A stretch of DNA of 64,000 nt, from the NCBI GenBank assembly GCA_964437795.1, contig CAYTIC010000004.1:3475-67474 (forward strand), in the 5' to 3' direction. Source of the stretch: an uncultured Dehalococcoidales bacterium. Its GTDB lineage: Bacteria; Chloroflexota; Dehalococcoidia; GIF9; UBA5629. The notes under the pieces are model-generated. The model was not told the origin of the DNA. It saw only the letters and a program-made list of their open reading frames with translations, and made no database searches. A program made the position numbers and the translations under genes. Positions 22,659 through 44,536 of this stretch are shown here, in pieces; position 1 is the stretch's first letter, and each line of letters opens with the position of its first letter.

Positions 22659-22676
22659 GTGCGTCAGATCAACTTT

Positions 22677-24326
22677 ATGAGAATTAGTCATATTCGAATC
22701 AGGGCGGTCCCCGTCCTGATACTGCCTTTGGTTATCGTAGCAGCGGTGCTAAGCGCCTGCAGCGGTCCCGGCATTGCGGATTCACTTGTAAAAGTACAAT
22801 CCGGTGACACGGTTGTCAACGGTATAATCATCGATAGCACCGGCTACATAGTCACCGGCGCTGGCGCGCTGGGCGACGCCGGCGCCCTGTCCGTTGAGCT
22901 TAAACCCGGGCAGAGCTATACAGGCCGTTTGATATGCAGGGATAGCGCCAGGAACCTGGCAATCCTCAAGATCGAAGGCGGTTACCCTGCGCTCAAGCCT
23001 GCCCTGCTGGGAGATTCTGATCTGGTTCATCAGTGGGATGAAGTGACTGTCTGGGGTAACATGCCGGGCACTTCAAGCCCGGTAGAATCAAAGGGCGCCG
23101 TAACTTCACTGCCCAAGGACGAGGGAACTGCCTACCTGCAGACGAATGCCGCTCTGGACCCGTCGGCGGCCGGAAGCGCCGTCCTGAACAAGGCCGGTGA
23201 GCTGGTCGGGATGGTTTCCTGGAATGCCGGACAGGTGGGCCGGGAAGGGTTCGTGCTATCTTCCAACGAGGTGAAGACGGTACTGACCCAGGCGCAGGAA
23301 GCAGAGGCTGATCCGCTTACTATCGTGTTGCCCGACCCACCGGACGTTTTCAGCGACCGCGCAGTAATATCCTGGAAGACTAACCGCCCGGCAACCGGAC
23401 AGGTGGAGTTCGGTCCAAAAGACTCGTACGGCAACAAGACGGCTTTGGATACGACCATGCTGACTACTCATGCGGCAGTACTGCAGGGACTTGTGCCGAA
23501 AATGACCTATTATTTCCGTGTGCTTTCTGAGGACTGCTGCGGCAACACGGCGGCATCCAGGGGATATACGCTCACCACCACGGCAGCAGGCGCCCAGGGG
23601 GGCAAATTCACGATCTCAAATATAGACGTCTACGATATCACCAGTTCAGCCGCGTCGGTGAGATGGATTACCAACAAACCGGCCACGGGCGCTGTAACCT
23701 ACCGGGCGGATAAAGCGACGGAATCCGATAGTGAAAGCGATAATAGTTTTGTGTACGAACACAAATTCAGGCTGAGCGGCCTGAGCCCGGAGACGCGCTA
23801 TAACGTGAGCATCAAATCTGAGACGGATTTCGATGAATCTGCCGGGCAGGCCCTGGACCCCTTCATGACGCCGCCGACTTCACCGGTCTGTTGTAAGATC
23901 AACTGCAGGATCCCCGATTTCTCTTTTAAAACACTCCAGGGGACCGATTTTACCAACAAGGATATTGCGGGCAAAAAGGTGTTCATCGTGTTTACCAAGA
24001 CCACATGCCCGACCTGCATGAAGCAGGCCCTTTTCCTTAACGATGTCATTCGAGATTGGCCAAAGGGGACCGATATGATGATGTTCATGGTGGCCAGCAG
24101 CGAGAAGAAAGCCGATGTCGAGGAGTGGATCAAGAAATACGGGCTGAACATGCCCGTTTATATAGACTCGACGGCCAACCTGGTCAGCGGGTGCCAGTTC
24201 AGGACCATACCCACGGCGCTTTTCCTGGATACCGGGTCGGTTATCAGGGACTACAAGAGCGGCGGATTCGGCAGCAAAAAAGACATGGAAGAGTCGTTGA
24301 AGCAGTTCTATCAGAAAGAGCGATAG
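22677..24326 (+). CDS. lipoprotein: degenerate S1 (HtrA-like) protease domain + two FN3/PAP-N-like domains + TlpA/ResA-like thioredoxin domain
   Basis: Lipobox LSAC; the trypsin-like region has PSAAGSAV where the GNSGG catalytic-Ser motif is expected (Ser to Ala); C-terminal TTCPTC thioredoxin motif. Confidence 0.7.
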   Translation: MRISHIRIRAVPVLILPLVIVAAVLSACSGPGIADSLVKVQSGDTVVNGIIIDSTGYIVTGAGALGDAGALSVELKPGQSYTGRLICRDSARNLAILKIEGGYPALKPALLGDSDLVHQWDEVTVWGNMPGTSSPVESKGAVTSLPKDEGTAYLQTNAALDPSAAGSAVLNKAGELVGMVSWNAGQVGREGFVLSSNEVKTVLTQAQEAEADPLTIVLPDPPDVFSDRAVISWKTNRPATGQVEFGPKDSYGNKTALDTTMLTTHAAVLQGLVPKMTYYFRVLSEDCCGNTAASRGYTLTTTAAGAQGGKFTISNIDVYDITSSAASVRWITNKPATGAVTYRADKATESDSESDNSFVYEHKFRLSGLSPETRYNVSIKSETDFDESAGQALDPFMTPPTSPVCCKINCRIPDFSFKTLQGTDFTNKDIAGKKVFIVFTKTTCPTCMKQALFLNDVIRDWPKGTDMMMFMVASSEKKADVEEWIKKYGLNMPVYIDSTANLVSGCQFRTIPTALFLDTGSVIRDYKSGGFGSKKDMEESLKQFYQKER

Positions 24327-24399: not shown

Positions 24400-26037
24400 T
24401 TAAGACCTGAATACGAAGCTGAGCGCGCCTGCAAGATCGATGGTATCACCGTCGTTCAGGGCGTGCTTGCCCGTACCCTTTATGGAGGAGCCGTTCAGCC
24501 TGGTGCCGTTAGTGCTGCCCCGGTCCTCGACATAGTACTGGCCGTTTTCATAGCTGACCGTGATATGTTGCCTGGATATCAGGTCGGCTTTGTCGGGGGC
24601 TACCATGGACTGGAAGTCCCTGCGCCCCAGAGGATTGCCGTCACCCGCCAGCGAAAGCTCGCTGCCGTTGGAGGCAACGAATTTGGCCGGTGGGCCAACG
24701 GATACCGGCGTGGTTTTGGGAGAACCTGTGGCCGGCAGTGTGGCAACGGGTGAAGTGACAGCAGGCATGGTGCCACCACGTGCGGTGCCATAATGAGCGA
24801 CCTGCGCAGCAGGCTTTCGCAGCAGCAGTATAACTATTATGATGGCGGCGGCGCCTAACAGGGCGATGAGCAGGAGATAAGGCAGCCACCAGGCCAGCGT
24901 CGAATTGCCGTTGCCTGCGCTGGGGATGGTGCTGATCTGGCTTGCAGCGGGAATTGATTCCGTTGTACCGGTATAGGCACTATCGGTGTAATAAGTGCTG
25001 CCGATATAGGGAGCTACTGTAACCGTAGTGCTGGCTACCGCCGTACCCCCGCTGTTGGATGCTGACAGGGTATACGTGGTCGTATAAGCGGGCGTTACAA
25101 CATACATACCGTTATTGGGCACCGAGCCCACCGACGGCGATATGCTGACGTTGGCCGTGTTGTCCACCATCCAGGACAATGTGGCAGTTTGTCCCGACTG
25201 TATATAGCTGGGATTAGCTGTGAATGAGCTGATCACAGGCGCGTAGACCGGGGTAGGTGTGGAAGGCACCACTACGATTGGGTAGGAAGGTGTGATCCAG
25301 GACCTGTACCACGGATAGGGATAGGGATTATATGGGGGGTAGGGAGGATATGGCGGCCGCGGATGTGGAGGAGGTGGTGGCGGCCATGGTGATGGCGGCC
25401 CCGGAGGTGGCGGACCTGGAGGTGGCGGCCATGGAGGTGGCGGACCCGGAGGCGGTGGCCCCGGAGGAGGCGGTCCTGGAGGAGGTGGTCCCGGGGGAGG
25501 TGGAGGAGGCGGATATGGGTATGCCGGCCCGCCGACGGGCGGCGCAGGTGTTATAACCTGGTCTATGATTGTTGGTGACGAGGACGGTGGTGTCGCCGGC
25601 GGCAAAGGGGGTGGTGGGAGAGTGACCTCCGGCGGAGGTGGCGTAGCCTCGGCTACAAGTGTAGGGGGCAATGGCGGCGCTGGATCTGAAGCAGGCATAA
25701 CGGTAGTCTCAGCTACCGGGGCGGAGATAACAGGAAGAATCACAGCCGACGCGTCGATTACCGGAGGCGAGAGTGGCGGAGGTGTATATATGGCTCCCGG
25801 CCCGCCGACGGGCGGCGCAGGTGTTATAACCTGGGCCATGATTGTCGGTGACGAAAGCGGCGGTGTCGTCGTATCAACAGGAGTTTCGGATGGCGCCGGT
25901 TCATCGGCGTAGAACACGCTTGCAGACCGGCTTGTTGAAACATCCTGCGCTGCAGAGGCAGGCGTAAGCGGCAGCATGAGTGCAGAGCAGATTAATAGCG
26001 CTGCCGCAAGGAACTGTATAGTTTTATTTATGTTCAT
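24400..26037 (-). CDS. single-pass membrane protein: signal peptide, Pro-rich stalk with internal repeat, Ig-like domain, TM, C-terminal cytoplasmic FHA domain (FHA paralog 1)
   Basis: AGGAGG RBS; signal peptide; extreme (PPPPG)n tract; TM LLLIALLGAAAIIIVILLL; FHA signature GRRD…SRQH…STNGT. Confidence 0.8.
   Translation of the reverse strand: MNINKTIQFLAAALLICSALMLPLTPASAAQDVSTSRSASVFYADEPAPSETPVDTTTPPLSSPTIMAQVITPAPPVGGPGAIYTPPPLSPPVIDASAVILPVISAPVAETTVMPASDPAPPLPPTLVAEATPPPPEVTLPPPPLPPATPPSSSPTIIDQVITPAPPVGGPAYPYPPPPPPPGPPPPGPPPPGPPPPGPPPPWPPPPGPPPPGPPSPWPPPPPPHPRPPYPPYPPYNPYPYPWYRSWITPSYPIVVVPSTPTPVYAPVISSFTANPSYIQSGQTATLSWMVDNTANVSISPSVGSVPNNGMYVVTPAYTTTYTLSASNSGGTAVASTTVTVAPYIGSTYYTDSAYTGTTESIPAASQISTIPSAGNGNSTLAWWLPYLLLIALLGAAAIIIVILLLRKPAAQVAHYGTARGGTMPAVTSPVATLPATGSPKTTPVSVGPPAKFVASNGSELSLAGDGNPLGRRDFQSMVAPDKADLISRQHITVSYENGQYYVEDRGSTNGTRLNGSSIKGTGKHALNDGDTIDLAGALSFVFRS
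25385..25510 (-). repeat. coding tandem repeat, ~15-bp unit (GGAGGTGGCGGNCCN on the + strand) encoding (PPPPG)n
   Basis: about 8 consecutive units visible in the DNA; lies within FHA paralog 1. Confidence 0.7.
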
Positions 26038-26057: not shown

Positions 26058-27641
26058 CTATATTTTAAAGGTGATACTAAGTTTATCGGCCAGCTCAACT
26101 ACATCACCGTCGACAAGGGCCTGCCTTCCATTGCCGCGGATCTCGGAGCCGTTGACCCTGGTGCCGTTTGTGCTGCTGCGGTCCTCGATATAGTATTTTC
26201 CATCTTCATACCATACGTTTATGTGCTGCCTGGATATGAATGAGGACCTTTCTCCGGGAAGAAGCTTTTCAAAGTCCTGGCGGCCTAACGTCCTGGTATT
26301 GCCGGCCAGCAGCATCTCGCTTCCGTCGGGCATAACCAACTTGGCCGGCGGAGCTTCCGTGACTGAAGTAGACGGTCCGGAATCGCCCGCTGTTGAAGTG
26401 GCGGCAGTCGATGTGGCGGCGGCAGAGGTAGAGGCAGCAGATGTAGCTGAGGCTGCCCGGGCGCCCGCTGCGCCGGTCGGATGGGATGCCCGGGGTCTCC
26501 TGACCAGCATTATGACTATCACGGTGGCCGCTATGGCCAGAAGTCCCAGAAGGCCGTAAAGCAGGTAGGGCGGTTGCTCAACTAATAAGGTTACAGCCAC
26601 CGCCTGTGTGGTACCGTCGATGTATGTGGCGGTTAGGTTGTAGGTGGTTGTTTGATCGGGCGTCACCGTCATAGTCCCCATAGCGTCGAAGTTACCCAGC
26701 CCTTCTATAAAAACCTTTACAGCGGCCGGGGCATTCCACGAAAGTACAGTGGATTGACCGGACTGTATGGTGGGCTGCTGTACGGTCAAAGTCGGTGATA
26801 CCCTCGGTATAACACTGATACTGGTGTTGGCGGTAACCGTGCTGCCTGAACTGCCCGTTGCCGACAGGGTGTAAGTGGTGGTTGCACCTGGGGTAACGGT
26901 CGTTGAACCCGATGTGCCCACTGTCCCAATCCCCGGAGTAATGGCGACGTTATTAGCGTTTGTGGTGGTCCAGGTAAGGGTGACCGTCTGTCCGACATCT
27001 ACCGACGATGCATTTGCACTGAAGGAGTTGATCACAGGCGGGTAGATCGGCCTGGGCGATGGCCCGCTGTAAGGGGAAATACTTCCGCGCGTATAGTTGA
27101 AGCTCAGGGTGCGTGTCGACCATGAGAAGCCGGAGTTGTACCACATCTTCCAGACATAGAGACCGTCGGGGTCCCATGATTCGGCGCTGAACGGCCCGAT
27201 CCGCCACATGCCCGCGTAGGGCCTGTACCACCTGTAGCACAGCCAGTGGCCATAGGGGGTGCTTCCCTGTGGGTAGTATTCCCACAGGTAAAAGTAACCC
27301 GGGCCGTTAAATGATACAACCAGGTAGCACAGGTCATTGCGGTACAGGTTGTACAACGTTTGCCCGTAGCTGGTCACAAGGTAGGCATTTACGATCGAAC
27401 CGGCAGCTCCCGGCGGGGGTGGTGTCGGGACCGTCATCTGGAGGCTGGGCCAGGTCTGATTGTAAGTATCAACTGCGACCGGGGGCTCAACCATTTCGCC
27501 GCCATCGTCCGGCGGTTGCCAGCTTTCATCGGGATTGACCGGTGGGGATGGCTGAGCCTGAACAGGCGAAAATACTGCAGCCGCTGCAGATACGACCATG
27601 AATGTGATCAGCAACGGTATAATTATCTTTTTCATATACAT
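26058..27641 (-). CDS. single-pass membrane protein: signal peptide, aromatic-rich ectodomain, two Ig-like domains, TM, C-terminal FHA (FHA paralog 2)
   Basis: AGGAGGTGA RBS; YLWEYYPQG…WR(I/L)GPF domain shared with paralog 3; Ig-like repeats shared with paralog 1; FHA GRQD…SRQH…STNGT. Confidence 0.8.
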   Translation of the reverse strand: MYMKKIIIPLLITFMVVSAAAAVFSPVQAQPSPPVNPDESWQPPDDGGEMVEPPVAVDTYNQTWPSLQMTVPTPPPPGAAGSIVNAYLVTSYGQTLYNLYRNDLCYLVVSFNGPGYFYLWEYYPQGSTPYGHWLCYRWYRPYAGMWRIGPFSAESWDPDGLYVWKMWYNSGFSWSTRTLSFNYTRGSISPYSGPSPRPIYPPVINSFSANASSVDVGQTVTLTWTTTNANNVAITPGIGTVGTSGSTTVTPGATTTYTLSATGSSGSTVTANTSISVIPRVSPTLTVQQPTIQSGQSTVLSWNAPAAVKVFIEGLGNFDAMGTMTVTPDQTTTYNLTATYIDGTTQAVAVTLLVEQPPYLLYGLLGLLAIAATVIVIMLVRRPRASHPTGAAGARAASATSAASTSAAATSTAATSTAGDSGPSTSVTEAPPAKLVMPDGSEMLLAGNTRTLGRQDFEKLLPGERSSFISRQHINVWYEDGKYYIEDRSSTNGTRVNGSEIRGNGRQALVDGDVVELADKLSITFKI

Positions 27642-27798: not shown

Positions 27799-28905
27799 CT
27801 ACTGGTCGGACCTGAGCTTAATGCTGGCCTTGCCGGCCATCTCTATTACATCTCCGTCATGCAAATCCACCAACCCCGCACCCCTTATATCCCGGCCGTT
27901 GACGGTAGTGCCGTTTGCGCTGTCCATATCCTCGATAAAAGGCTTTCCTTCCTCGAAACTGATCCTGAAGTGCCGCTTGGATATCGCTCCCAGTTCATCC
28001 AGTCCCAGCGACCTGGCGATATGGGCCCGTCCGATTATTTCGCTTTCGCCGCCCAGCCGTATCTTCTGCCCGTTGGGCAATTCCAACGTAGCCAGGGCTG
28101 TTCCGCGCACCTGTGTGCGTGCCGGCGCCGACGGTTTCTCGAGCAGTTCTACCAAGGGTTGATTCACCTCGTTTTGCGGATAACGCCGTTCTCGCAGGGA
28201 CCGGCGCACGAGCCACCCCATCAGTACGATGAGGACTATGATTGAAGGGGCAATCAGCAGGGTCACGGGATTGGTGATGAATTTAATAAACTGGTCGCCA
28301 GGTGATACCGGCGGCACTGCTGCGGGGGTTGAAACGGCCTGCGTATTTTCTCCCGTGCCTTTTTCGTAGTCCCAGTAGACAAGGTCGCTTTTCTGTGTAC
28401 CGCCAGTCGCCCACTGTCCGTTTCCATAGAAGAAAAACCTGTAGATATGCTGCCCTACAAGCTCGTCCTCACCCGGCCAGAACGGACCAAGCCGCCATCT
28501 CCCGGGCTCCAGCAATTGCCATTTATAGGCTATCCATTTTCCCTGGCTTTCACCCCCTGAGGGGTAATACTCATATATATACAGCCAGCCCGGGGTATTG
28601 ATGTCGACATCGAGGTACCATTGCTCATCCCCCGACACTTTGTGGCCGCCAGCGGTGAACTTCCCCCACAGGCCGGCAATCAGCCCCGGCGGCGCGTCTG
28701 AAGGCTGTGCCGTAGCGCCCTGTAACACGAGGGTAACGGGCGGCTTTATCTCGCTATGCTGGGTATCGCCCTCGGGTTCGGGAATTGTGTAGTTCTCGGT
28801 CGGGGCGCCCATGGCATAAGCAGGTACGTGTGTAATAACGGCGGCGCCCAGTGATGACAGTAGAATGGCCAGCGTAAATACAAGTGCAGGTATCCGCCGG
28901 CTCAT
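27799..28905 (-). CDS. single-pass membrane protein: signal peptide, aromatic-rich ectodomain, TM, C-terminal FHA (FHA paralog 3)
   Basis: Start ATG overlaps the STK stop (ATGA); FHA GRAH…SKRH…SANGT. Confidence 0.8.
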   Translation of the reverse strand: MSRRIPALVFTLAILLSSLGAAVITHVPAYAMGAPTENYTIPEPEGDTQHSEIKPPVTLVLQGATAQPSDAPPGLIAGLWGKFTAGGHKVSGDEQWYLDVDINTPGWLYIYEYYPSGGESQGKWIAYKWQLLEPGRWRLGPFWPGEDELVGQHIYRFFFYGNGQWATGGTQKSDLVYWDYEKGTGENTQAVSTPAAVPPVSPGDQFIKFITNPVTLLIAPSIIVLIVLMGWLVRRSLRERRYPQNEVNQPLVELLEKPSAPARTQVRGTALATLELPNGQKIRLGGESEIIGRAHIARSLGLDELGAISKRHFRISFEEGKPFIEDMDSANGTTVNGRDIRGAGLVDLHDGDVIEMAGKASIKLRSDQ

Positions 28906-29921
28906 TTGGATACCTCCAGTGCTTTCACCTCGCCGGTGCTTGAAACCAGGAGGGCTGTCCTCATGGCCACGGCGCTGGCAAACCTGCTGCCGGGGGAGTA
29001 CATAATGGACTGCGCGAGACAGCGGGCAGTCTTTTTAGAGAAGCCTGCTGAAATCATGTGGTCCGCCACCGTGCCGGCCTCCGCATAACTGCGCGGCCAG
29101 GAGGTGTGGATCAACTCGGTGCACAGGTCGTTGGGTTGCCTGAGTGTGAGCAGGTATATGCAGGTCTGGGCCAGGCCGCACAGGTCGCAGCGCTGGTCGC
29201 TCTCACCGCCGATGAAAAGTTCAGGTATGTCAAAACCCTTGTTAGCTATCTGGGTGAAGGGGTCAGTCCTGATGGTGTCCTTCTTCATGCTTTCCAGGCT
29301 TTTGGCCGTGCCGAAGTCGATCAGCTTAATGCCGCCATTGCCGCTCAGCATGATGTTCTTGGGATTGATGTCCCTGTGCACGATGCCGGCAGCATGGATA
29401 TAGGCCAGGGCATCCAGCGCCTGGCCGGCCCAGAACAGGACCTTTTGCTCACCGGCCGATGTCCTTGGCGAGGAGGACATGATGGTTTCACCTGTTATCA
29501 ACTCAAGCACCAGGTGGAATTCTCCCCTGTAATAAAAATCATCCAGATATGTGACTATGTTGGGGTGCTGCAGCCTTTTCAGGAAACCTGCCTCCTGGCG
29601 CAGCTTGTCCAGGTATACGTTGTCCATGGTAGTGCCCCTGCGGGGCGTCTTGATGATGCATTTCCTGCCGTTGGTGCGGTCCCTGGCCAGCCAGATATTC
29701 GCCATGCCCCCCTGTTTGAATGCCGGCGCTTTGAGCTCATAGCGGCCGTTAACGCGATGTTTGCTTTCAGGCTGGGCCGGCTGCGGCCGCAGGGGCTCTC
29801 CGCGGCGCAGTGCGGAAGCCCTCATTTTGCGCCTCTGGATTGCCTGAATAATGGCCACAATCACAGGTACACTGGTGAAAACCAGCGCAATGACTATTAC
29901 GAAAAGGGTAGGATCGTCCAT
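28902..29921 (-). CDS. Hanks-type Ser/Thr protein kinase, N-terminal TM anchor, no extracellular sensor
   Basis: VAIK-like lysine (CIIKTP), HRDINPKN catalytic loop (atypical spacing), DFG, IPE; ATGA overlap with the PP2C stop. Confidence 0.85.
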   Translation of the reverse strand: MDDPTLFVIVIALVFTSVPVIVAIIQAIQRRKMRASALRRGEPLRPQPAQPESKHRVNGRYELKAPAFKQGGMANIWLARDRTNGRKCIIKTPRRGTTMDNVYLDKLRQEAGFLKRLQHPNIVTYLDDFYYRGEFHLVLELITGETIMSSSPRTSAGEQKVLFWAGQALDALAYIHAAGIVHRDINPKNIMLSGNGGIKLIDFGTAKSLESMKKDTIRTDPFTQIANKGFDIPELFIGGESDQRCDLCGLAQTCIYLLTLRQPNDLCTELIHTSWPRSYAEAGTVADHMISAGFSKKTARCLAQSIMYSPGSRFASAVAMRTALLVSSTGEVKALEVSK

Positions 29922-30724
29922 CAGGCTGTTCTTACCCCCGTCTTTGCCGATATCAAAGCCTGCCAGGAAGGAAGGCCGCCCGGCCTGGCGATAATGACCG
30001 ATATATTGTCCGGGCCGCCGACCAGGTTGGCCTGCGAGACCAGGTCGGAGCAGGCCTGCGAGGGACTGGCCGAAGCGAGCACCGTTTCCTCGATTTTATC
30101 CGTAGGGAGCACTCCGCAAAGGCCGTCCGAGCACAGGAGCACGTTGTCGCCGGCGTATAGCTTGATCTGTATGAGGTCCGGCACGCTGTTTGCACTGTAT
30201 CCCAGCACGCGTGTTATCTCGTTGCGGCGAGGGTGGGCTAAGGCTTCACCGGACGATATCTGCCCGGTATCTACAAGCTCCTGCACCACTGAATGGTCCG
30301 TTGTGACCTGTATGGTCTCCCTGGAGTTGATAATATAACAGCGGGAGTCTCCAATATGCGCCACGTACATGTCCTGGCCTATCAAAAGGGCGGCAGTGAG
30401 AGTGGTACCCATGCCCTGCAGCGATTTTTCCGCTGCGGCTTCGAGGACAGCGCTGTTAGCCTTGCTGAAGGCAGCGCCCATCAGTGGCAGCCCCGGCTTC
30501 GACGACCTGGTCAGCAAACCGGAGATACATTCAGCCTGGAAAATCCTGATAGCCAGGTCGCTGGCTATCTCCCCGGCATCGTGGCCGCCCATCCCGTCCG
30601 CGACGGCTAACAGGCCTGCCGATACCATTCCGGAGTGCGTCCGCAGGTCAAAGGTGCTGCAGAAGATGCTGTCTTCGTTAAGCTTTCTCACCAGGCCGGT
30701 GTCCCAGCCGTAACCAGTGTCCAA
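29921..30724 (-). CDS. PP2C-family Ser/Thr phosphatase
   Basis: LAVADGMGGHDAGEIAS metal-binding motif; TTG start 6 nt after an AAGGAG RBS. Confidence 0.85.
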   Translation of the reverse strand: MDTGYGWDTGLVRKLNEDSIFCSTFDLRTHSGMVSAGLLAVADGMGGHDAGEIASDLAIRIFQAECISGLLTRSSKPGLPLMGAAFSKANSAVLEAAAEKSLQGMGTTLTAALLIGQDMYVAHIGDSRCYIINSRETIQVTTDHSVVQELVDTGQISSGEALAHPRRNEITRVLGYSANSVPDLIQIKLYAGDNVLLCSDGLCGVLPTDKIEETVLASASPSQACSDLVSQANLVGGPDNISVIIARPGGLPSWQALISAKTGVRTA

Positions 30725-30746: not shown

Positions 30747-31229
30747 TTAACCTGACCTGAAGATCAGTGTGGCGCCCGGCTGCCTGGCCAGTTCTATCCT
30801 GTCGCCATCTTTAAGAGGCTGCTTACCTTTATGATGGATATCAATGTTGTTGACCCTGGTGTGATTGGTGCTGCCGGTCCCGTCGCGTCCGTGATCCTGC
30901 ACATAATAGGTTCCCTTTTCATATGTCAGCAGCAGATGCTGCCTGGAGATGCTCATTAAAGCGTCCTGCTGGAGTTTGCCCTCAAAGTCACTGCGCTGAA
31001 TGAACTGAGGAATGCTATTGAGGACGATTTCATTACCCCCCGGCAAGATCAGCCTGGCCGTAGACCCCAGCGGCTCAGCTTCAATGATCTCCTCAACAGC
31101 CATGCCGCCGAGCGCAGGTTCCGACTCTGTGAACAGGTAATTGCCGCAACTATAACAGAAAAAACTGCCGGCGCCGTTCAAACCGTGACAGGCCGGGCAG
31201 ATTACACTGACGCTTATTACCTCTTCCAT
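30747..31229 (-). CDS. zinc-ribbon + FHA domain protein
   Basis: CPACHG…CYSCG zinc ribbon followed by FHA SRQH…STNHT. Confidence 0.75.
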   Translation of the reverse strand: MEEVISVSVICPACHGLNGAGSFFCYSCGNYLFTESEPALGGMAVEEIIEAEPLGSTARLILPGGNEIVLNSIPQFIQRSDFEGKLQQDALMSISRQHLLLTYEKGTYYVQDHGRDGTGSTNHTRVNNIDIHHKGKQPLKDGDRIELARQPGATLIFRSG

Positions 31230-31297: not shown

Positions 31298-31387
31298 AAA
31301 TCTGACATATTTAAACTCTATGACGATTGTCCTTGATATATTATACTGCAAGAGGATATACAGACTTTACAAGGCTGGAGTCCGGTG

Positions 31388-32071
31388 ATGGCTTTCATCA
31401 TAGTTAAGAAAGGTGATGCTGAGGATATCGGTAAAATATTTACCCTGAGCAGGGCTAATATGGTGATAGGCCGCCGCACACCAAAGTATAAGCCAGACAT
31501 CGAGTTAAGCGATGAAGCCGTCTCAAGGCGGCATGTCGAGATCATTGAGAAAGACGGCCGTTATCAATTGCGTGACCTGGGCAGCACAAATGGGACTATG
31601 CTGGATGATGACAGGATACTGCCCGGCAAGCTATATGAGTTGAAACACAACTGTAAAATTGGATTGGGGGTAGCAGCAGGCCCGGCGCAGGTCTTGTTGA
31701 TTTTCAAGCAGTCGGAGAGTACTAACCTGATGGGGAGGCAGGGGGCAAGTCCGGTTGAAAAGGTCATTGCAACGGACGTCAGCTGGCTGAAGATCGACGA
31801 GGCCAGGAAGGAGGTCTGTGTGGACGGCGAACCCGTAAAACTGTCGCGCAAGGAGTACGAGTTGCTGATGTTCCTTTACCAAAACGCCGGCGCAGTCTGC
31901 CTGCGCGACGAGATTATTAAGGTTGTGTGGTCCGAGAGCCAGGACCCGGCTGCCATATCCGACGCAACCCTCGACCAGCTTGTGCACCGTCTGCGCGAGA
32001 AGGTTGAACCCGAGCCTGTTAATCCAACACGCATCATAAGCCGAAAAGCCTTCGGCTATATGCTGGTTTAA
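31388..32071 (+). CDS. FHA domain + OmpR/PhoB-type winged-helix DNA-binding domain transcriptional regulator
   Basis: N-terminal FHA (GRR…SRRH…STNGT); C-terminal trans_reg_C (KLSRKEYELLMFLYQNAGAVCLRDEII…LDQLVHRLREKVE). Confidence 0.8.
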   Translation: MAFIIVKKGDAEDIGKIFTLSRANMVIGRRTPKYKPDIELSDEAVSRRHVEIIEKDGRYQLRDLGSTNGTMLDDDRILPGKLYELKHNCKIGLGVAAGPAQVLLIFKQSESTNLMGRQGASPVEKVIATDVSWLKIDEARKEVCVDGEPVKLSRKEYELLMFLYQNAGAVCLRDEIIKVVWSESQDPAAISDATLDQLVHRLREKVEPEPVNPTRIISRKAFGYMLV

Positions 32072-41298: not shown

Positions 41299-42858
41299 CT
41301 ATATTATTCTGTTATCTTTGCCCTCCCAGTATTTTTCCTTGACCAGGCGGCGTAATATCTTGCCTGTGGGAGTCATGGGCAGCTCTGTGACGAAGTCCAC
41401 CGTGCGCGGACGTTTATAGCCGGCCAGCTTTCCCTTGGTGAACTCGACGATCTCTTCCTGTGTAGCGCGCATCCCGTCCTTCAGCAGGACCACCGCCTTG
41501 ACCGACTCACCCCAGAATTCATCCGGTACGCCGACGATGGCGACCTCTCTGACGGAAGGATGTGTATAAATGACGTTCTCAACTTCAGTTGGGTAGATGT
41601 TCTCACCGCCGGAGATTATCATGTCGTTTTTACGGTCTACCAGGTACAGGTAATTTTCCTCATCGACATATCCCATATCGCCTACAGCACACCATTCGCC
41701 GCGGAAGGCGGCCTTGGTGGCCTGGGGGTTCTTTAAATACTCTTTAAAAATGTTAATGCCGCGGGTATATATCTCACCTATCTCCCTGGCTGCCATCTCC
41801 TTTCCTTCGGGGTCCAGGATCTTGATCTGCTTTCCGAAAACGGCCTGCCCCACCGATTTCATCTTCCTGATCTGGTCCTCGGGACGCAAAGCAGTTACCA
41901 CCCCCGTCTCTGTGGCGCCGTAGCCTTCGTAAAGCTTGGCGTTCTTAAAAAAGGACAGTATCTCGGTCTTGGTTTTGGCCGATATCGGCGCAGAGGAGGA
42001 GAGCAGAGTTGTCATACTCGAGACATCGTATTTGTTGCGTACCTCTTCGGGTAAAGCCAGGATAATGTTGTACATAGTCGGCACCATGCTGGAGATATTC
42101 ACCTTATACTTATCGATTATCTGCAGGATCTCCTCGCCGTTGAATCCGCGCAGGTGATATATGTGGATGGTCATACCGCTGAGGAACGAGGCCATGACAT
42201 TATTGATGGAATTTGAATGGAAGGTGGGCATGACGATAAGGTTGACCATATATGAGGTTACGAATTCAATATTCATTACCACTGCAGTCTCAACGCCCGT
42301 TTTGTGCAGGGTGACCGCCCCTTTTGGGAAGCCGGTTGTGCCTGATGTATAGCCGATGCACAGGATGTCCTCCGGAACGATTTTAACATCGGGCTCTTCC
42401 GCGGAGCCTTCTTTTACCAGGTCCTGATAAAGGCCGCCCGCATCGCGGAATTTTTTACTCCCCACTACCCAGTATTTATCAACCGGTATTTGTTTGATAT
42501 CCTTAGCCGCTATTTCCATGGTCGGGATGAATTCTTCTCCCAGTATCATGGCGCAGGCATCGGAGTTCTCGACGACAAACTTGATCTCCGGCGCCTGGAA
42601 GCGCCAGTTCACGGGAACCATGATAATACCGGTTTTGGAGCAGGCCATAATTAACTCGACGAACTGATAGCAGTTCATGAGCAATATCCCCAGCCTGTCT
42701 CCCTTCTTTAATCCGCTGGCAAGCAGATTGTTGGCAATGCGGTTAACCCGGCGGTTGAATTCCTCGTATGTAAAAGAGGCATCGTCACCGACGATAGCAT
42801 TGCGCTTGGGATACCTGTTGACACTGTTGAGCAGAAGTTCGCCTACTACCAGATTCAT
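41299..42858 (-). CDS. AMP-dependent acyl-/aryl-CoA ligase
   Basis: YTSGTTGFPKG AMP-binding motif; AGGAGGAGG RBS. Confidence 0.85.
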   Translation of the reverse strand: MNLVVGELLLNSVNRYPKRNAIVGDDASFTYEEFNRRVNRIANNLLASGLKKGDRLGILLMNCYQFVELIMACSKTGIIMVPVNWRFQAPEIKFVVENSDACAMILGEEFIPTMEIAAKDIKQIPVDKYWVVGSKKFRDAGGLYQDLVKEGSAEEPDVKIVPEDILCIGYTSGTTGFPKGAVTLHKTGVETAVVMNIEFVTSYMVNLIVMPTFHSNSINNVMASFLSGMTIHIYHLRGFNGEEILQIIDKYKVNISSMVPTMYNIILALPEEVRNKYDVSSMTTLLSSSAPISAKTKTEILSFFKNAKLYEGYGATETGVVTALRPEDQIRKMKSVGQAVFGKQIKILDPEGKEMAAREIGEIYTRGINIFKEYLKNPQATKAAFRGEWCAVGDMGYVDEENYLYLVDRKNDMIISGGENIYPTEVENVIYTHPSVREVAIVGVPDEFWGESVKAVVLLKDGMRATQEEIVEFTKGKLAGYKRPRTVDFVTELPMTPTGKILRRLVKEKYWEGKDNRII

Positions 42859-42926
42859 ATTTGTCCTCCTCCTAAATTGTGTGAATAAAATGATCGGAAT
42901 TTGAGCCGGATTTCGCGTCGCCGATG

Positions 42927-43490
42927 TTATTTCTGTTTTTTACTATCAGTCGATTCATCAAAATCGGTGATTACTTGTATAGTGCTCTCTGTCCACTCCA
43001 ATAAAGCTTCGTACTGTGCAAGGACCCTGTCCACAACCAGCGTCCAGTAAAGCTTATCCAACGGTGCTGCCAATCCCCACAGATCTGATTCAATGGCGGG
43101 CTTGGCCATTGACTTATATTTCTCAATCTCGCCTTTCAATTTCTTAGAATATTTCTTAATGTTGTTAATCATGTCTTTTTTTGGTGCGCGGCTTCCATAC
43201 CATAGCTTTAATAGAAGTGTTTCACGCGGGACAACAAATTCAGGAGGCTCTTTGAGCCATCTCGTCAATTCCGTTTTACCCTTATCGGTGATGGTAAATA
43301 CGTTTTTGTATGGAAGCTTCTCCTGGTCGACCCTTTCACATTCGATTAATCCTTCCTCAGTCAGCATGTTCAATTTGCGATAAATCTGACTCTGGGAGGG
43401 CCGCAGGGGTTCGAAAAACATTTTTGATAAATCGTAACCTGTTTTCGGCCCGTAACTTAAAAATCCCAGTAGACCGTATTTCAATGACAT
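42927..43490 (-). CDS. PadR family transcriptional regulator (with C-terminal extension)
   Basis: N-terminal wHTH typical of PadR (GLLGFLSYGPKTGYDLSK…). Confidence 0.8.
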   Translation of the reverse strand: MSLKYGLLGFLSYGPKTGYDLSKMFFEPLRPSQSQIYRKLNMLTEEGLIECERVDQEKLPYKNVFTITDKGKTELTRWLKEPPEFVVPRETLLLKLWYGSRAPKKDMINNIKKYSKKLKGEIEKYKSMAKPAIESDLWGLAAPLDKLYWTLVVDRVLAQYEALLEWTESTIQVITDFDESTDSKKQK

Positions 43491-43756
43491 AACAATAAGC
43501 CCCTATAACTAACTCATTTATTAGCGAATGGCATCCGCCCAGGGGGATATATGCCCAGGTCAATATACGCCGGGGCATAAGATAACATATGGTTGAAATG
43601 CTTGTCAACCCCAATTATTTCGAAATAAAAGGGTGATTAAGAGAGGTGTTAATCAGGTGCTTGTCATGAATATGGAATGGAGCATCCCGTTCATAGTTGG
43701 GACAAACTACATATTGAGAGGAAAGAAAAGTTCATGGAAAATGGGCGTGTCCGGTA

Positions 43757-44536
43757 TCAGCTGGAATGGTTTTTTGCGATAACTGCCGCTCCCAGTGCGG
43801 CCATGAGGCGTGGGTTGTCGGGCACCAGGGCTTTGACGGCGAGCTTTTCTTCGATGGCCTGCACCAGGCCGATATCGAGCGCCCCGCCGCCGATGACGGC
43901 AAAATCCTTCTCCAGGGCAACACCGCGTGACATGCCGCTGATCTTATCGGCGATAGAACGATGTATGCCGGACAGAATGTCCTCGGGTTTATCGCCCTGA
44001 GAGATGCGGGTGATGACCTCGGTTTCCAGGAACACCGTGCATGAGGTGGAGAAGCTGGAAGGCCTGGTAGACTTTAGCGAGAGCGGCCCGATCTCATCGA
44101 TGCCGATCTGCAGTATGCGGGCCACGACCTGCAGCAGGCGGGCGCTGCCGGTGGCGCATATCTCGGAGACATTGAAGTTAATTACGTGCCCTTCGCCGTC
44201 CATGGTAATCACCTGGCTGCCCTGTCCGCCGATATCGATGATTGTGCGAACAGTGGGGAAAGTCAGGTTGACGCCCCGGGCATCGCAGATGATCACGCCG
44301 TGATAGCTGTCGGCGTTGGCGTTTCTCCCTCCAATGCCGGTAGCTGCGCTGGCTGTAATGGCGGAAGGTTGAAGGCCGGCCCGTTTGAGGGCTTCAGCTT
44401 TGACGGCCGCAGATGTCGTGGCATAGTTGGTGCCGGAGGGTATCACAATAGAACCCACGATGTTCTTCCGGCCGTCTATTATGACGGCTTTGCTGGCGGC
44501 CGCACCGATGTCTATGCCGAGGTAGAATTCAGTCAT
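43757..44536 (-). CDS. BcrAD/BadFG/HgdC-family ATPase (activator/electron-transfer subunit)
   Basis: Acetate/sugar-kinase ASKHA fold (LGIDIGAAASKAV…). Confidence 0.8.
   Translation of the reverse strand: MTEFYLGIDIGAAASKAVIIDGRKNIVGSIVIPSGTNYATTSAAVKAEALKRAGLQPSAITASAATGIGGRNANADSYHGVIICDARGVNLTFPTVRTIIDIGGQGSQVITMDGEGHVINFNVSEICATGSARLLQVVARILQIGIDEIGPLSLKSTRPSSFSTSCTVFLETEVITRISQGDKPEDILSGIHRSIADKISGMSRGVALEKDFAVIGGGALDIGLVQAIEEKLAVKALVPDNPRLMAALGAAVIAKNHSS

Follow-up and report, generated by a model that had tools for sequence, protein, structure and literature searches.

Extended proline-rich segments thought to span a layer of the cell envelope are known from the extracytoplasmic parts of anchored proteins such as TonB, with its periplasm-spanning (EP)n(KP)n rod, and pneumococcal PspA and PspC, whose proline-rich regions vary in length. 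The serine-aspartate (SD) repeats of the staphylococcal Clf and Sdr proteins are encoded by a short-period, synonymously degenerate minisatellite, form an extracellular low-complexity segment and differ in length between strains while staying in frame (PMC3324548). In the periscope proteins, an N-terminal binding domain is projected by repeats that are themselves folded domains, encoded by near-identical DNA (PMC8201768). Here we describe a polyproline tract encoded in a stretch of 64,000 nucleotides from an uncultured Dehalococcoidales bacterium (assembly GCA_964437795.1, contig CAYTIC010000004.1, positions 3,475 to 67,474), which we call the window and in whose coordinates all positions are given. 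The tract belongs to an FHA-domain membrane protein, paralog 1, which is one of three paralogs with a transmembrane (TM) helix and an FHA domain (FHA-TM paralogs) that are co-transcribed with a sensorless kinase, a PP2C phosphatase and a pair of soluble FHA proteins that includes a transcription factor. In our judgement the tract is probably best explained as a degenerate 15-bp coding minisatellite in the extracytoplasmic part of this protein, which gains and loses units, would adopt a polyproline II (PPII)-like conformation and would be only loosely constrained in length.

The 15-bp-period array occupies approximately 25363-25512 of the + strand, and the tract and the segments next to it are laid out as follows.

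25363-25512, minus strand: whole polyproline tract including the degenerate flank units, residues 176-225, PPPPPPPG...PPPPPPH
25378-25497, minus strand: eight in-register 15-bp units encoding PP[G/W]PP, residues 181-220 (from the codon table, Tandem Repeats Finder and the in-register matches)
25309-25362, minus strand: aromatic and proline-rich segment PRPPYPPYPPYNPYPYPW, residues 226-243, of a type conserved across the family
25500-25598: proximal copy of a 99-nt direct repeat, encoding SSPTIIDQVITPAPPVGGPAYPY and abutting the polyproline tract
25773-25871: distal copy of the 99-nt direct repeat, encoding SSPTIMAQVITPAPPVGGPGAIY

Tandem Repeats Finder called the array at 25376-25500 with a period of 15, 7.1 copies and 79-81% matches, and called it again at periods of 30 and 45. 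An earlier reading of the window, made from the sequence only, had counted about eight tandem units, and this count was recovered: when at most two mismatches were allowed, the consensus GGAGGTGGCGGNCC matched eight times in register, at an exact spacing of 15 bp, between 25373 and 25491. Over the whole window the consensus matched 11 times against 2.96 expected, a number reached in 0 of 100 shuffles. The peptide quoted in the same reading was identical to the minus-strand translation (...PYPPPPPPPGPPPPGPPPPGPPPPGPPPPWPPPPGPPPPGPPSPWPPPPPPHPRPPYPPYPPYNPYPYPW, residues 174-243). The middle position of the eight PP[G/W]PP units is occupied by glycine in six and by tryptophan in two, one unit carries a proline to serine change, and the array is bordered by PPPPP and PPPPH half-units, the aromatic segment coming next.

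The mean pairwise identity of the eight units was 0.77, compared with 0.72 in random synonymous re-encodings of the same peptide (p ~0.003), and at third codon positions the identity was 0.48 compared with 0.30. This excess is modest but significant. All third codon positions vary between units, the longest exact repeat in the array is 14 nt, and the differences are nearly all synonymous: at first and second codon positions, two Gly to Trp changes and one Pro to Ser change are the only ones, and the PPGPP pattern is broken by the residues encoded at 3 of the 40 codons of the array. The periodicity of the DNA is therefore mostly imposed by the encoded peptide, and the repeat is real but degenerate. 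As the units are more alike than re-encoding of the peptide would make them and yet degenerate, we read them as true duplications that are old and have diverged synonymously with the peptide kept; since the differences between units are almost all synonymous, the peptide is held rich in proline and glycine by selection. A collagen-like triple helix of the G-X-Y type was considered and rejected, because Gly or Trp recurs at every fifth residue, not at every third.

We then compared the length of the tract between related sequences, measuring it between two conserved anchors, LPPPPLPP upstream and VVVPS downstream.

Window: tract of 107 residues with seven PPPP[G/W/L] units
L008, flanks 94-96% identical to the window: tract of 97 residues with five PPPP[G/W/L] units
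L009, flanks 94-96% identical to the window: tract of 112 residues with nine PPPP[G/W/L] units, and two PPPPPPG units in addition

L008 and L009 come from the same metagenome, and at least four distinct alleles are found together in the metagenome Ga0247841. A second lineage, formed by L015, L016, L017 and L024, is 100% identical (rounded) over the C-terminal 900 nt and shows 3-9 mismatches over the 1.4-1.7 kb aligned, indels aside; within it, L016 differs from L015 and L024 by a clean in-frame loss of 21 bp in the tract, located between two copies of the 17-nt direct repeat CCTCCACCTCCTGGGCC. The expectation that the length of the tract might vary between strains was thus borne out, both by the five and nine units against seven in alleles that are about 95% identical and by the 21-bp indel of L016.

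The polyproline units are not the only part of the ectodomain that varies. Upstream lies an acidic repeat with a 45-bp unit encoding ETPAPVVETTPVV or APVVETTVASxPE, which varies separately from the polyproline units: comparison of L015 and L024 (around nt 2400-2600 of each locus) revealed one extra 45-bp ETPAPVVETTPVV unit in L024, and L012 and L013, otherwise essentially identical, also differ by whole acidic units. The two copies of the 99-nt direct repeat, which are 84% identical, lie 273 nt apart in the same gene and encode SSPTI[IM]xQVITPAPPVGGP; in the allele of L008 the distal copy is missing and acidic EPVAPVVE repeats take its place, so that the N-terminal ectodomain appears as a mosaic when genomes of about 95% identity are compared. 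In the comparison of L008 with the window, the indels and the low identity (49-58%) occur only within 25316-25915, against 91-97% identity in the neighbouring DNA. At larger distances, the type or the count of the units differs in every species examined (PPPPG, PPPPL, the 7-residue GPLPPPP, P10 or irregular proline-rich sequence). The order of a proline-rich tract followed by an aromatic-rich segment before an immunoglobulin (Ig)-like domain is kept in homologs down to 45% identity, and the LPPPPLPP motif is conserved in all orthologs. All the alleles, from the window and the 17 related sequences, are in frame. The same alleles were recovered from independent assemblies (L015 = L024; L018 = L022; L012 = L013 = L014 = L007), which argues against assembler noise.

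The choice of proline codons in the tract is strongly biased. Over 14 loci, CCC made up 7% (33/478) of the proline codons inside runs of at least three prolines and 27% (242/887) of those elsewhere in the same genes, with CCA and CCT used in its place (chi-square p 3e-41; as the 14 loci are related to one another, this value overstates their independence, but the direction was the same in 14 of 14). The avoidance of CCC was noted at 25363-25512 of the window and in L001, L008-L020, L028 and L030-L033, and it is also present in distant orthologs. Likewise, the tract of the window contains two C runs of five or more nucleotides, against 9.1 expected from the codon usage of the window. In a proline run the next codon begins with C, and hence each CCC creates both a CCC-C site and a DNA homopolymer; CCC-C is the classic context for +1 frameshifting by tRNA-Pro (PMC7577736, PMC4519876). 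The sequence looks as if it had been shaped to tolerate changes of length by whole units and yet to resist frameshifts. Because CCC codons and C runs are avoided and all alleles are in frame, the reading frame is kept safe by selection, and the avoidance of CCC in proline runs allows the tract to change length without switching the gene on and off. A phase-variable contingency locus of the on/off kind was accordingly discarded, given the 15-bp unit, the 18 of 18 sequences in frame and the scarcity of C homopolymers.

The protein that carries the tract has the following parts.

24400-26037, minus strand: gene of the 545-residue type-I membrane FHA protein, paralog 1 (open reading frame (ORF), Pfam FHA match and AlphaFold2 model)
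25948-26037, minus strand: putative signal peptide, residues 1-30, with probable cleavage between ASA and AQD (from the sequence; kept in orthologs)
25003-25254, minus strand: membrane-proximal Ig-like beta-sandwich ectodomain, residues 262-345, with seven strands and a predicted local distance difference test score (pLDDT) of 93-98
24820-24885, minus strand: TM helix, residues 385-406, followed by RKP (from the sequence and AlphaFold2)
24703-24720, minus strand: conserved cytoplasmic P-x-T-T-P-V motif (from homolog column counts)
24403-24690, minus strand: cytoplasmic FHA domain, residues 450-545 (from Pfam, invariant columns and Foldseek)

The putative signal peptide, the single TM helix and the C-terminal cytoplasmic FHA domain place the tract outside the cytoplasm. 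The AlphaFold2 model, built from 65 homologs, begins with a helix at residues 3-20, which we read as the signal peptide, and shows no regular secondary structure over residues 21-260. The pLDDT was 35-50 over the first 140 residues, with most of residues 23-118 scoring under 50, and reached 64-76 in the polyproline tract; the low-complexity region of the ectodomain amounts to about 230 residues. The model contains a single folded ectodomain, the Ig-like one, which sits between the tract and the membrane; on the N-terminal, distal side of the tract it shows nothing folded. The Ig-like domain gave only sub-threshold PKD and I-set matches in Pfam and is homologous to the Ig-like domains of paralog 2. 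On the cytoplasmic side, a Thr/Pro-rich linker connects the TM helix to the FHA domain (Pfam E 8e-14), whose phosphothreonine (pThr)-binding residues G471, R472, S488, R489, H491 and N510 (GR...SRxH...N) are invariant in the family; the top Foldseek matches in the PDB were all FHA domains, among them those of GarA, OdhI, FhaA and EmbR. These residues, together with the linkage to a kinase and a PP2C phosphatase, are those of an FHA adaptor of a Hanks-kinase/PP2C module. The PxTTPV motif precedes the FHA domain by a few residues, with T442 being Thr in 59 of 65 homologs and V445 at the pT+3 position, and it is a plausible candidate for a phosphorylation site, as kinase target and FHA ligand. 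We found 79 FHA-domain homologs of paralog 1, and all the named ones were from metagenome-assembled genomes (MAGs) of Dehalococcoidia; an exact-sequence lookup did not find the paralog 1 protein on record, and a literature search on the Dehalococcoidia FHA family returned nothing specific.

These observations show that complete units of 15, 21 or 30 bp are added to the array or removed from it without loss of frame, through slippage or through recombination at short direct repeats (14-17 nt), and the length of the tract differs between close relatives for this reason. We propose further that the tract would form an extended, semi-rigid PPII-like segment some 15-20 nm in length at 3.1 A per residue, with about 15 nm for residues 176-225 and about 21 nm if the aromatic-proline part is counted with it, and that it would connect the disordered and hypervariable tail at the N-terminus with the Ig-like domain near the membrane. 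In such an arrangement, composition and extension would matter and the exact length would be loosely constrained. Translation of the approximately 10 PPP/PPG/PPW motifs would be expected to need elongation factor P (EF-P).

Several points weigh against this proposal. The glycine at every fifth residue may add flexibility, and the confidence of AlphaFold2 in the tract is only moderate. Nothing folded appears in the model distal to the tract for a spacer to hold. The irregular ortholog allele P0001 was identical on 21 contigs, which indicates that turnover is not rapid. Finally, all the comparisons were drawn from short-read metagenome assemblies, which are able to collapse or mis-join repeats, and several contigs stop within repeats. 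Some of these points also bear on what the sequence-only reading had claimed. The tract had been described there as prone to slippage; the change in length agrees with this, but with units only 77% identical and P0001 the same on 21 contigs, the locus is variable between strains and not hypermutable. The tract had also been called an extracellular stalk, and its extracellular position is in agreement with the signal peptide, the TM helix and the cytoplasmic FHA domain, but a stalk that carries a head does not fit the AlphaFold2 model.

A different way to look at the variation would be to take the tract as an adaptive device, either periscope-like or for antigenic variation against phages or predators, or one that alters how far the N-terminal tail projects through the envelope. 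The N-terminal ectodomain is indeed the divergence hotspot of the locus, as seen in the contrast between the window and L008, two separate repeat systems (the 45-bp acidic one and the polyproline one) vary in copy number, and several alleles coexist in Ga0247841. However, the AlphaFold2 model offers no functional head domain to be projected, the repeats are degenerate and not homogenised, unlike those of periscope proteins (PMC8201768), no phage or host-interaction context was found at the locus, and relaxed constraint on a low-complexity region would yield the same pattern. We regard an adaptive role of this kind as unlikely.

The genes around paralog 1 bring in another possibility, and they are arranged in the window as follows.

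26058-27641, minus strand: paralog 2, with signal peptide, Trp/Tyr (W/Y)-rich beta-sandwich, two Ig-like domains, TM helix and FHA domain
27799-28905, minus strand: paralog 3, with signal peptide, W/Y-rich domain, TM helix and FHA domain
28902-29921, minus strand: Hanks-type Ser/Thr kinase, anchored by a TM helix at its N-terminus and with hardly any ectodomain (from Pfam and the N-terminal sequence)
29921-30724, minus strand: PP2C phosphatase
30747-31229, minus strand: small FHA protein of 160 residues, with a Pfam match to FHA only
31385-32071, plus strand: divergently transcribed regulator with FHA and winged-helix (Trans_reg_C) domains

Paralog 1 is the last gene of the minus-strand cluster formed by the small FHA protein, the PP2C phosphatase, the kinase and the three FHA-TM paralogs. 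Paralogs 1 and 2 have the Ig-like, TM and FHA parts in common, and paralogs 2 and 3 share the W/Y-rich beta-sandwich (residues 83-184, 27090-27395, in paralog 2; residues 93-190, about 28330-28630, in paralog 3), which carries the motif GPGYFYLWEYYP...HWLCYRWYRP, was modelled as an Ig-like sandwich and matched no Pfam family in either protein. The model of the ectodomain of paralog 2 resembles a generic three-Ig ectodomain. The order of the seven genes recurs in close relatives and around orthologs only 45-50% identical, and the homologs and genome records that carry names are all Dehalococcoidia or Dehalococcoidales MAGs. The seven genes constitute a module that is conserved across Dehalococcoidia and uncharacterised, and that looks like a split receptor-kinase system.

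Some further features of the neighbourhood were recorded. The close orthologs of the small FHA protein in L001 and L007 have 160 residues and an FHA domain only, and the distant ones have 187-198 residues with an N-terminal double zinc ribbon (DZR); the zinc ribbon may have been lost in the lineage of the window, or the start may lie further upstream. Immediately downstream of paralog 1, at 22659-24326, is a gene for a fusion of a secreted or anchored trypsin-like protease with two fn3/purple-acid-phosphatase-N domains and a redoxin/AhpC domain, which is syntenic in close relatives and lies a few kb away in the distant L032. A scan for operon promoters and terminators gave nothing above the shuffled background. 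The remaining genes of the window are ordinary chromosomal ones (purine synthesis, coenzyme A metabolism, major facilitator superfamily transporters), and the guanine-plus-cytosine content dips to 0.47 at 42001-44000, around a PadR-family regulator gene (42927-43490), compared with about 0.55 elsewhere.

With such neighbours, the tract might serve as a multivalent proline-rich ligand for an aromatic-rich partner, such as paralogs 2 and 3 with their W/Y-rich ectodomains, in a hetero-oligomeric sensor that would work for the sensorless kinase and in which the number of units would tune avidity. The three FHA-TM genes are always found together and in the same order, even around the 45-50% identical orthologs, and the kinase without an ectodomain, the shared W/Y-rich sandwich without a Pfam family and the second motif, LPPPPLPP, kept in all orthologs would suit a partnership of this sort. 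Against it, the W/Y-rich domain superposes on ordinary Ig-like three-domain ectodomains and shows no known proline-recognition fold, and the unit type changes quickly from one species to the next (G, L, W or 7-residue), which suits a spacer better than a specific ligand, so that we hold this role to be quite improbable. A more elaborate version can be imagined, in which the FHA-TM paralogs are detachable sensor subunits, the W/Y-rich Ig-like domains of paralogs 2 and 3 dock onto the polyproline array as onto a multivalent extracellular rail, the repeat number sets the stoichiometry or avidity of the resulting hetero-oligomeric receptor, and the intracellular readout runs through PxTTPV, as a pThr-FHA contact, to the FHA-winged-helix factor; we give it very little probability.

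It could also be asked whether the tract acts mainly at the level of translation, as a throttle in which EF-P-dependent stalls set the output of the last gene of the cluster or pace its co-translational export. Paralog 1 holds 11 of the 15 runs of at least three prolines found in the 52 genes of the window and contains the PPP, PPG and PPW motifs; for PPG and PPP, stalling that depends on EF-P is documented (PMC4140641, PMC3638311), and the codon choice in the proline runs is strongly non-random. The 37 ORFs of the window that were scanned with Pfam include no efp gene, a result that applies to these ORFs and not to the genome beyond them. On the other hand, one or a few motifs would be enough for a throttle, where there are 50 residues; the conservation in the family of a long proline-rich region with an aromatic segment points to a role of the protein product; and the avoidance of CCC is equally explained by avoidance of CCC-C +1 frameshifting (PMC7577736, PMC4519876) and of homopolymer slippage. 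Stalling is probably a cost of the tract and not its purpose, and we doubt strongly that a throttle is its main function.

An origin of the tract in misassembly, through collapse of a repeat or chimerism, is hardly credible: the short-read origin of the assemblies and the contigs that stop inside repeats would speak for it, but the tract is in frame, its architecture recurs in the 17 related sequences that were compared, different datasets independently yielded identical alleles, and the array is only about 150 bp long with units that can be told apart by their synonymous differences.

The repeats do affect assemblies and annotation in other ways. Contigs L011, L014, L016, L017, L020, L028, L029 and L030 end in polyproline or acidic repeats, and the database 'proteins' P0004 to P0007 are truncated, with 307-316 residues and a start just past the tract. 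On the opposite strand of the window, two ORFs had been listed and taken as spurious, a view with which our comparison agrees.

25332-25556, plus strand: spurious antisense ORF of 74 residues, with its codon position 2 on the sense wobble position
25565-25912, plus strand: spurious antisense ORF of 115 residues, open opposite the proline-rich coding sequence

Both ORFs exist. The complement of CCN cannot form a stop codon, which is why the antisense frames are open, and all three of them are open in every allele; real antisense genes were ruled out on these grounds. In addition, since the sense wobble position is codon position 2 of the ORF at 25332-25556, variation in the tract is non-synonymous for that ORF. 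Gene callers reported an antisense ORF over the proline-rich region on 3 of 3 examined contigs in which the true gene is truncated (L028, L029 and L030), as for example at 121-270 of L028 and 185-424 of L030.

Differences in tract length between close relatives are common for low-complexity regions of bacterial surface proteins, and in-frame length variation of minisatellites is familiar from the surface proteins of pathogens; the locus described here indicates that it also acts on envelope proteins of uncultured environmental Dehalococcoidia. The codon pattern provides a clear example of a coding repeat that changes length without frameshifting. In practice, such repeats fragment metagenome assemblies and yield truncated gene calls and false antisense ORFs. 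The triad of FHA-TM proteins around a sensorless kinase is the more interesting lead, and the module may be a better target of study than the tract.

Among described systems, the closest analogues in behaviour are the staphylococcal SD repeats and, more loosely, the periscope proteins. Like the SD repeats of Clf and Sdr, the array described here has a short period, is degenerate at synonymous positions, lies in an extracellular low-complexity segment and differs in length in frame between strains. In contrast to them, the peptide is PPPPG, there is neither an LPXTG wall anchor nor a distal ligand-binding A domain, and the tract is distal to the sole folded ectodomain (in the order tail, tract, Ig-like domain, TM helix) instead of between a ligand-binding domain and the anchor; moreover, the tract is carried by a signalling adaptor that has its FHA domain in the cytoplasm. 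With the periscope proteins SasG, Rib and Sgo_0707 (PMC8201768) the array shares a repeat number that varies by strain and would alter the length of an extended surface element, but its units have 5 residues and 77% DNA identity, exact repeats in it reach no more than 14 nt and the model shows no head domain. Paralog 1 was consequently not assigned to the periscope class: of the features of that class, only the strain-variable repeat number was found, and folded repeat units, near-identical DNA and a distal head domain were not. The proline-rich region of PknH in the Mycobacterium tuberculosis complex, which lies beside the FHA regulator EmbR (PMC7785237), is also part of a kinase/FHA locus, shows an in-frame deletion polymorphism between close lineages and has no function assigned; however, it is cytoplasmic and forms the linker between the kinase domain and the TM helix in the kinase itself, whereas the tract studied here is extracytoplasmic and belongs to an FHA adaptor. 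Paralog 1 has neither the C-terminal domain of TonB nor a choline-binding domain as in PspA and PspC, according to Pfam, and differs from these proteins in repeat chemistry and domain order; TonB was rejected as an identity for it, as Pfam shows only FHA and YscD-like cytoplasmic domains and the anchor is near the C-terminus. Finally, the cluster resembles the actinobacterial FhaA/FhaB(FipA)-PstP-PknA/B module and other modules of FHA proteins, Ser/Thr kinases and PP2C phosphatases, in that FHA proteins are clustered with a Hanks kinase and PP2C, the FHA fold matches those of FhaA, GarA and EmbR, and a conserved TTPV motif adjoins the FHA domain. It differs from them in that the cluster is without cell-division or peptidoglycan genes and its named homologs are all from Dehalococcoidia, and in having three FHA proteins with Ig-like ectodomains beside a sensorless kinase.

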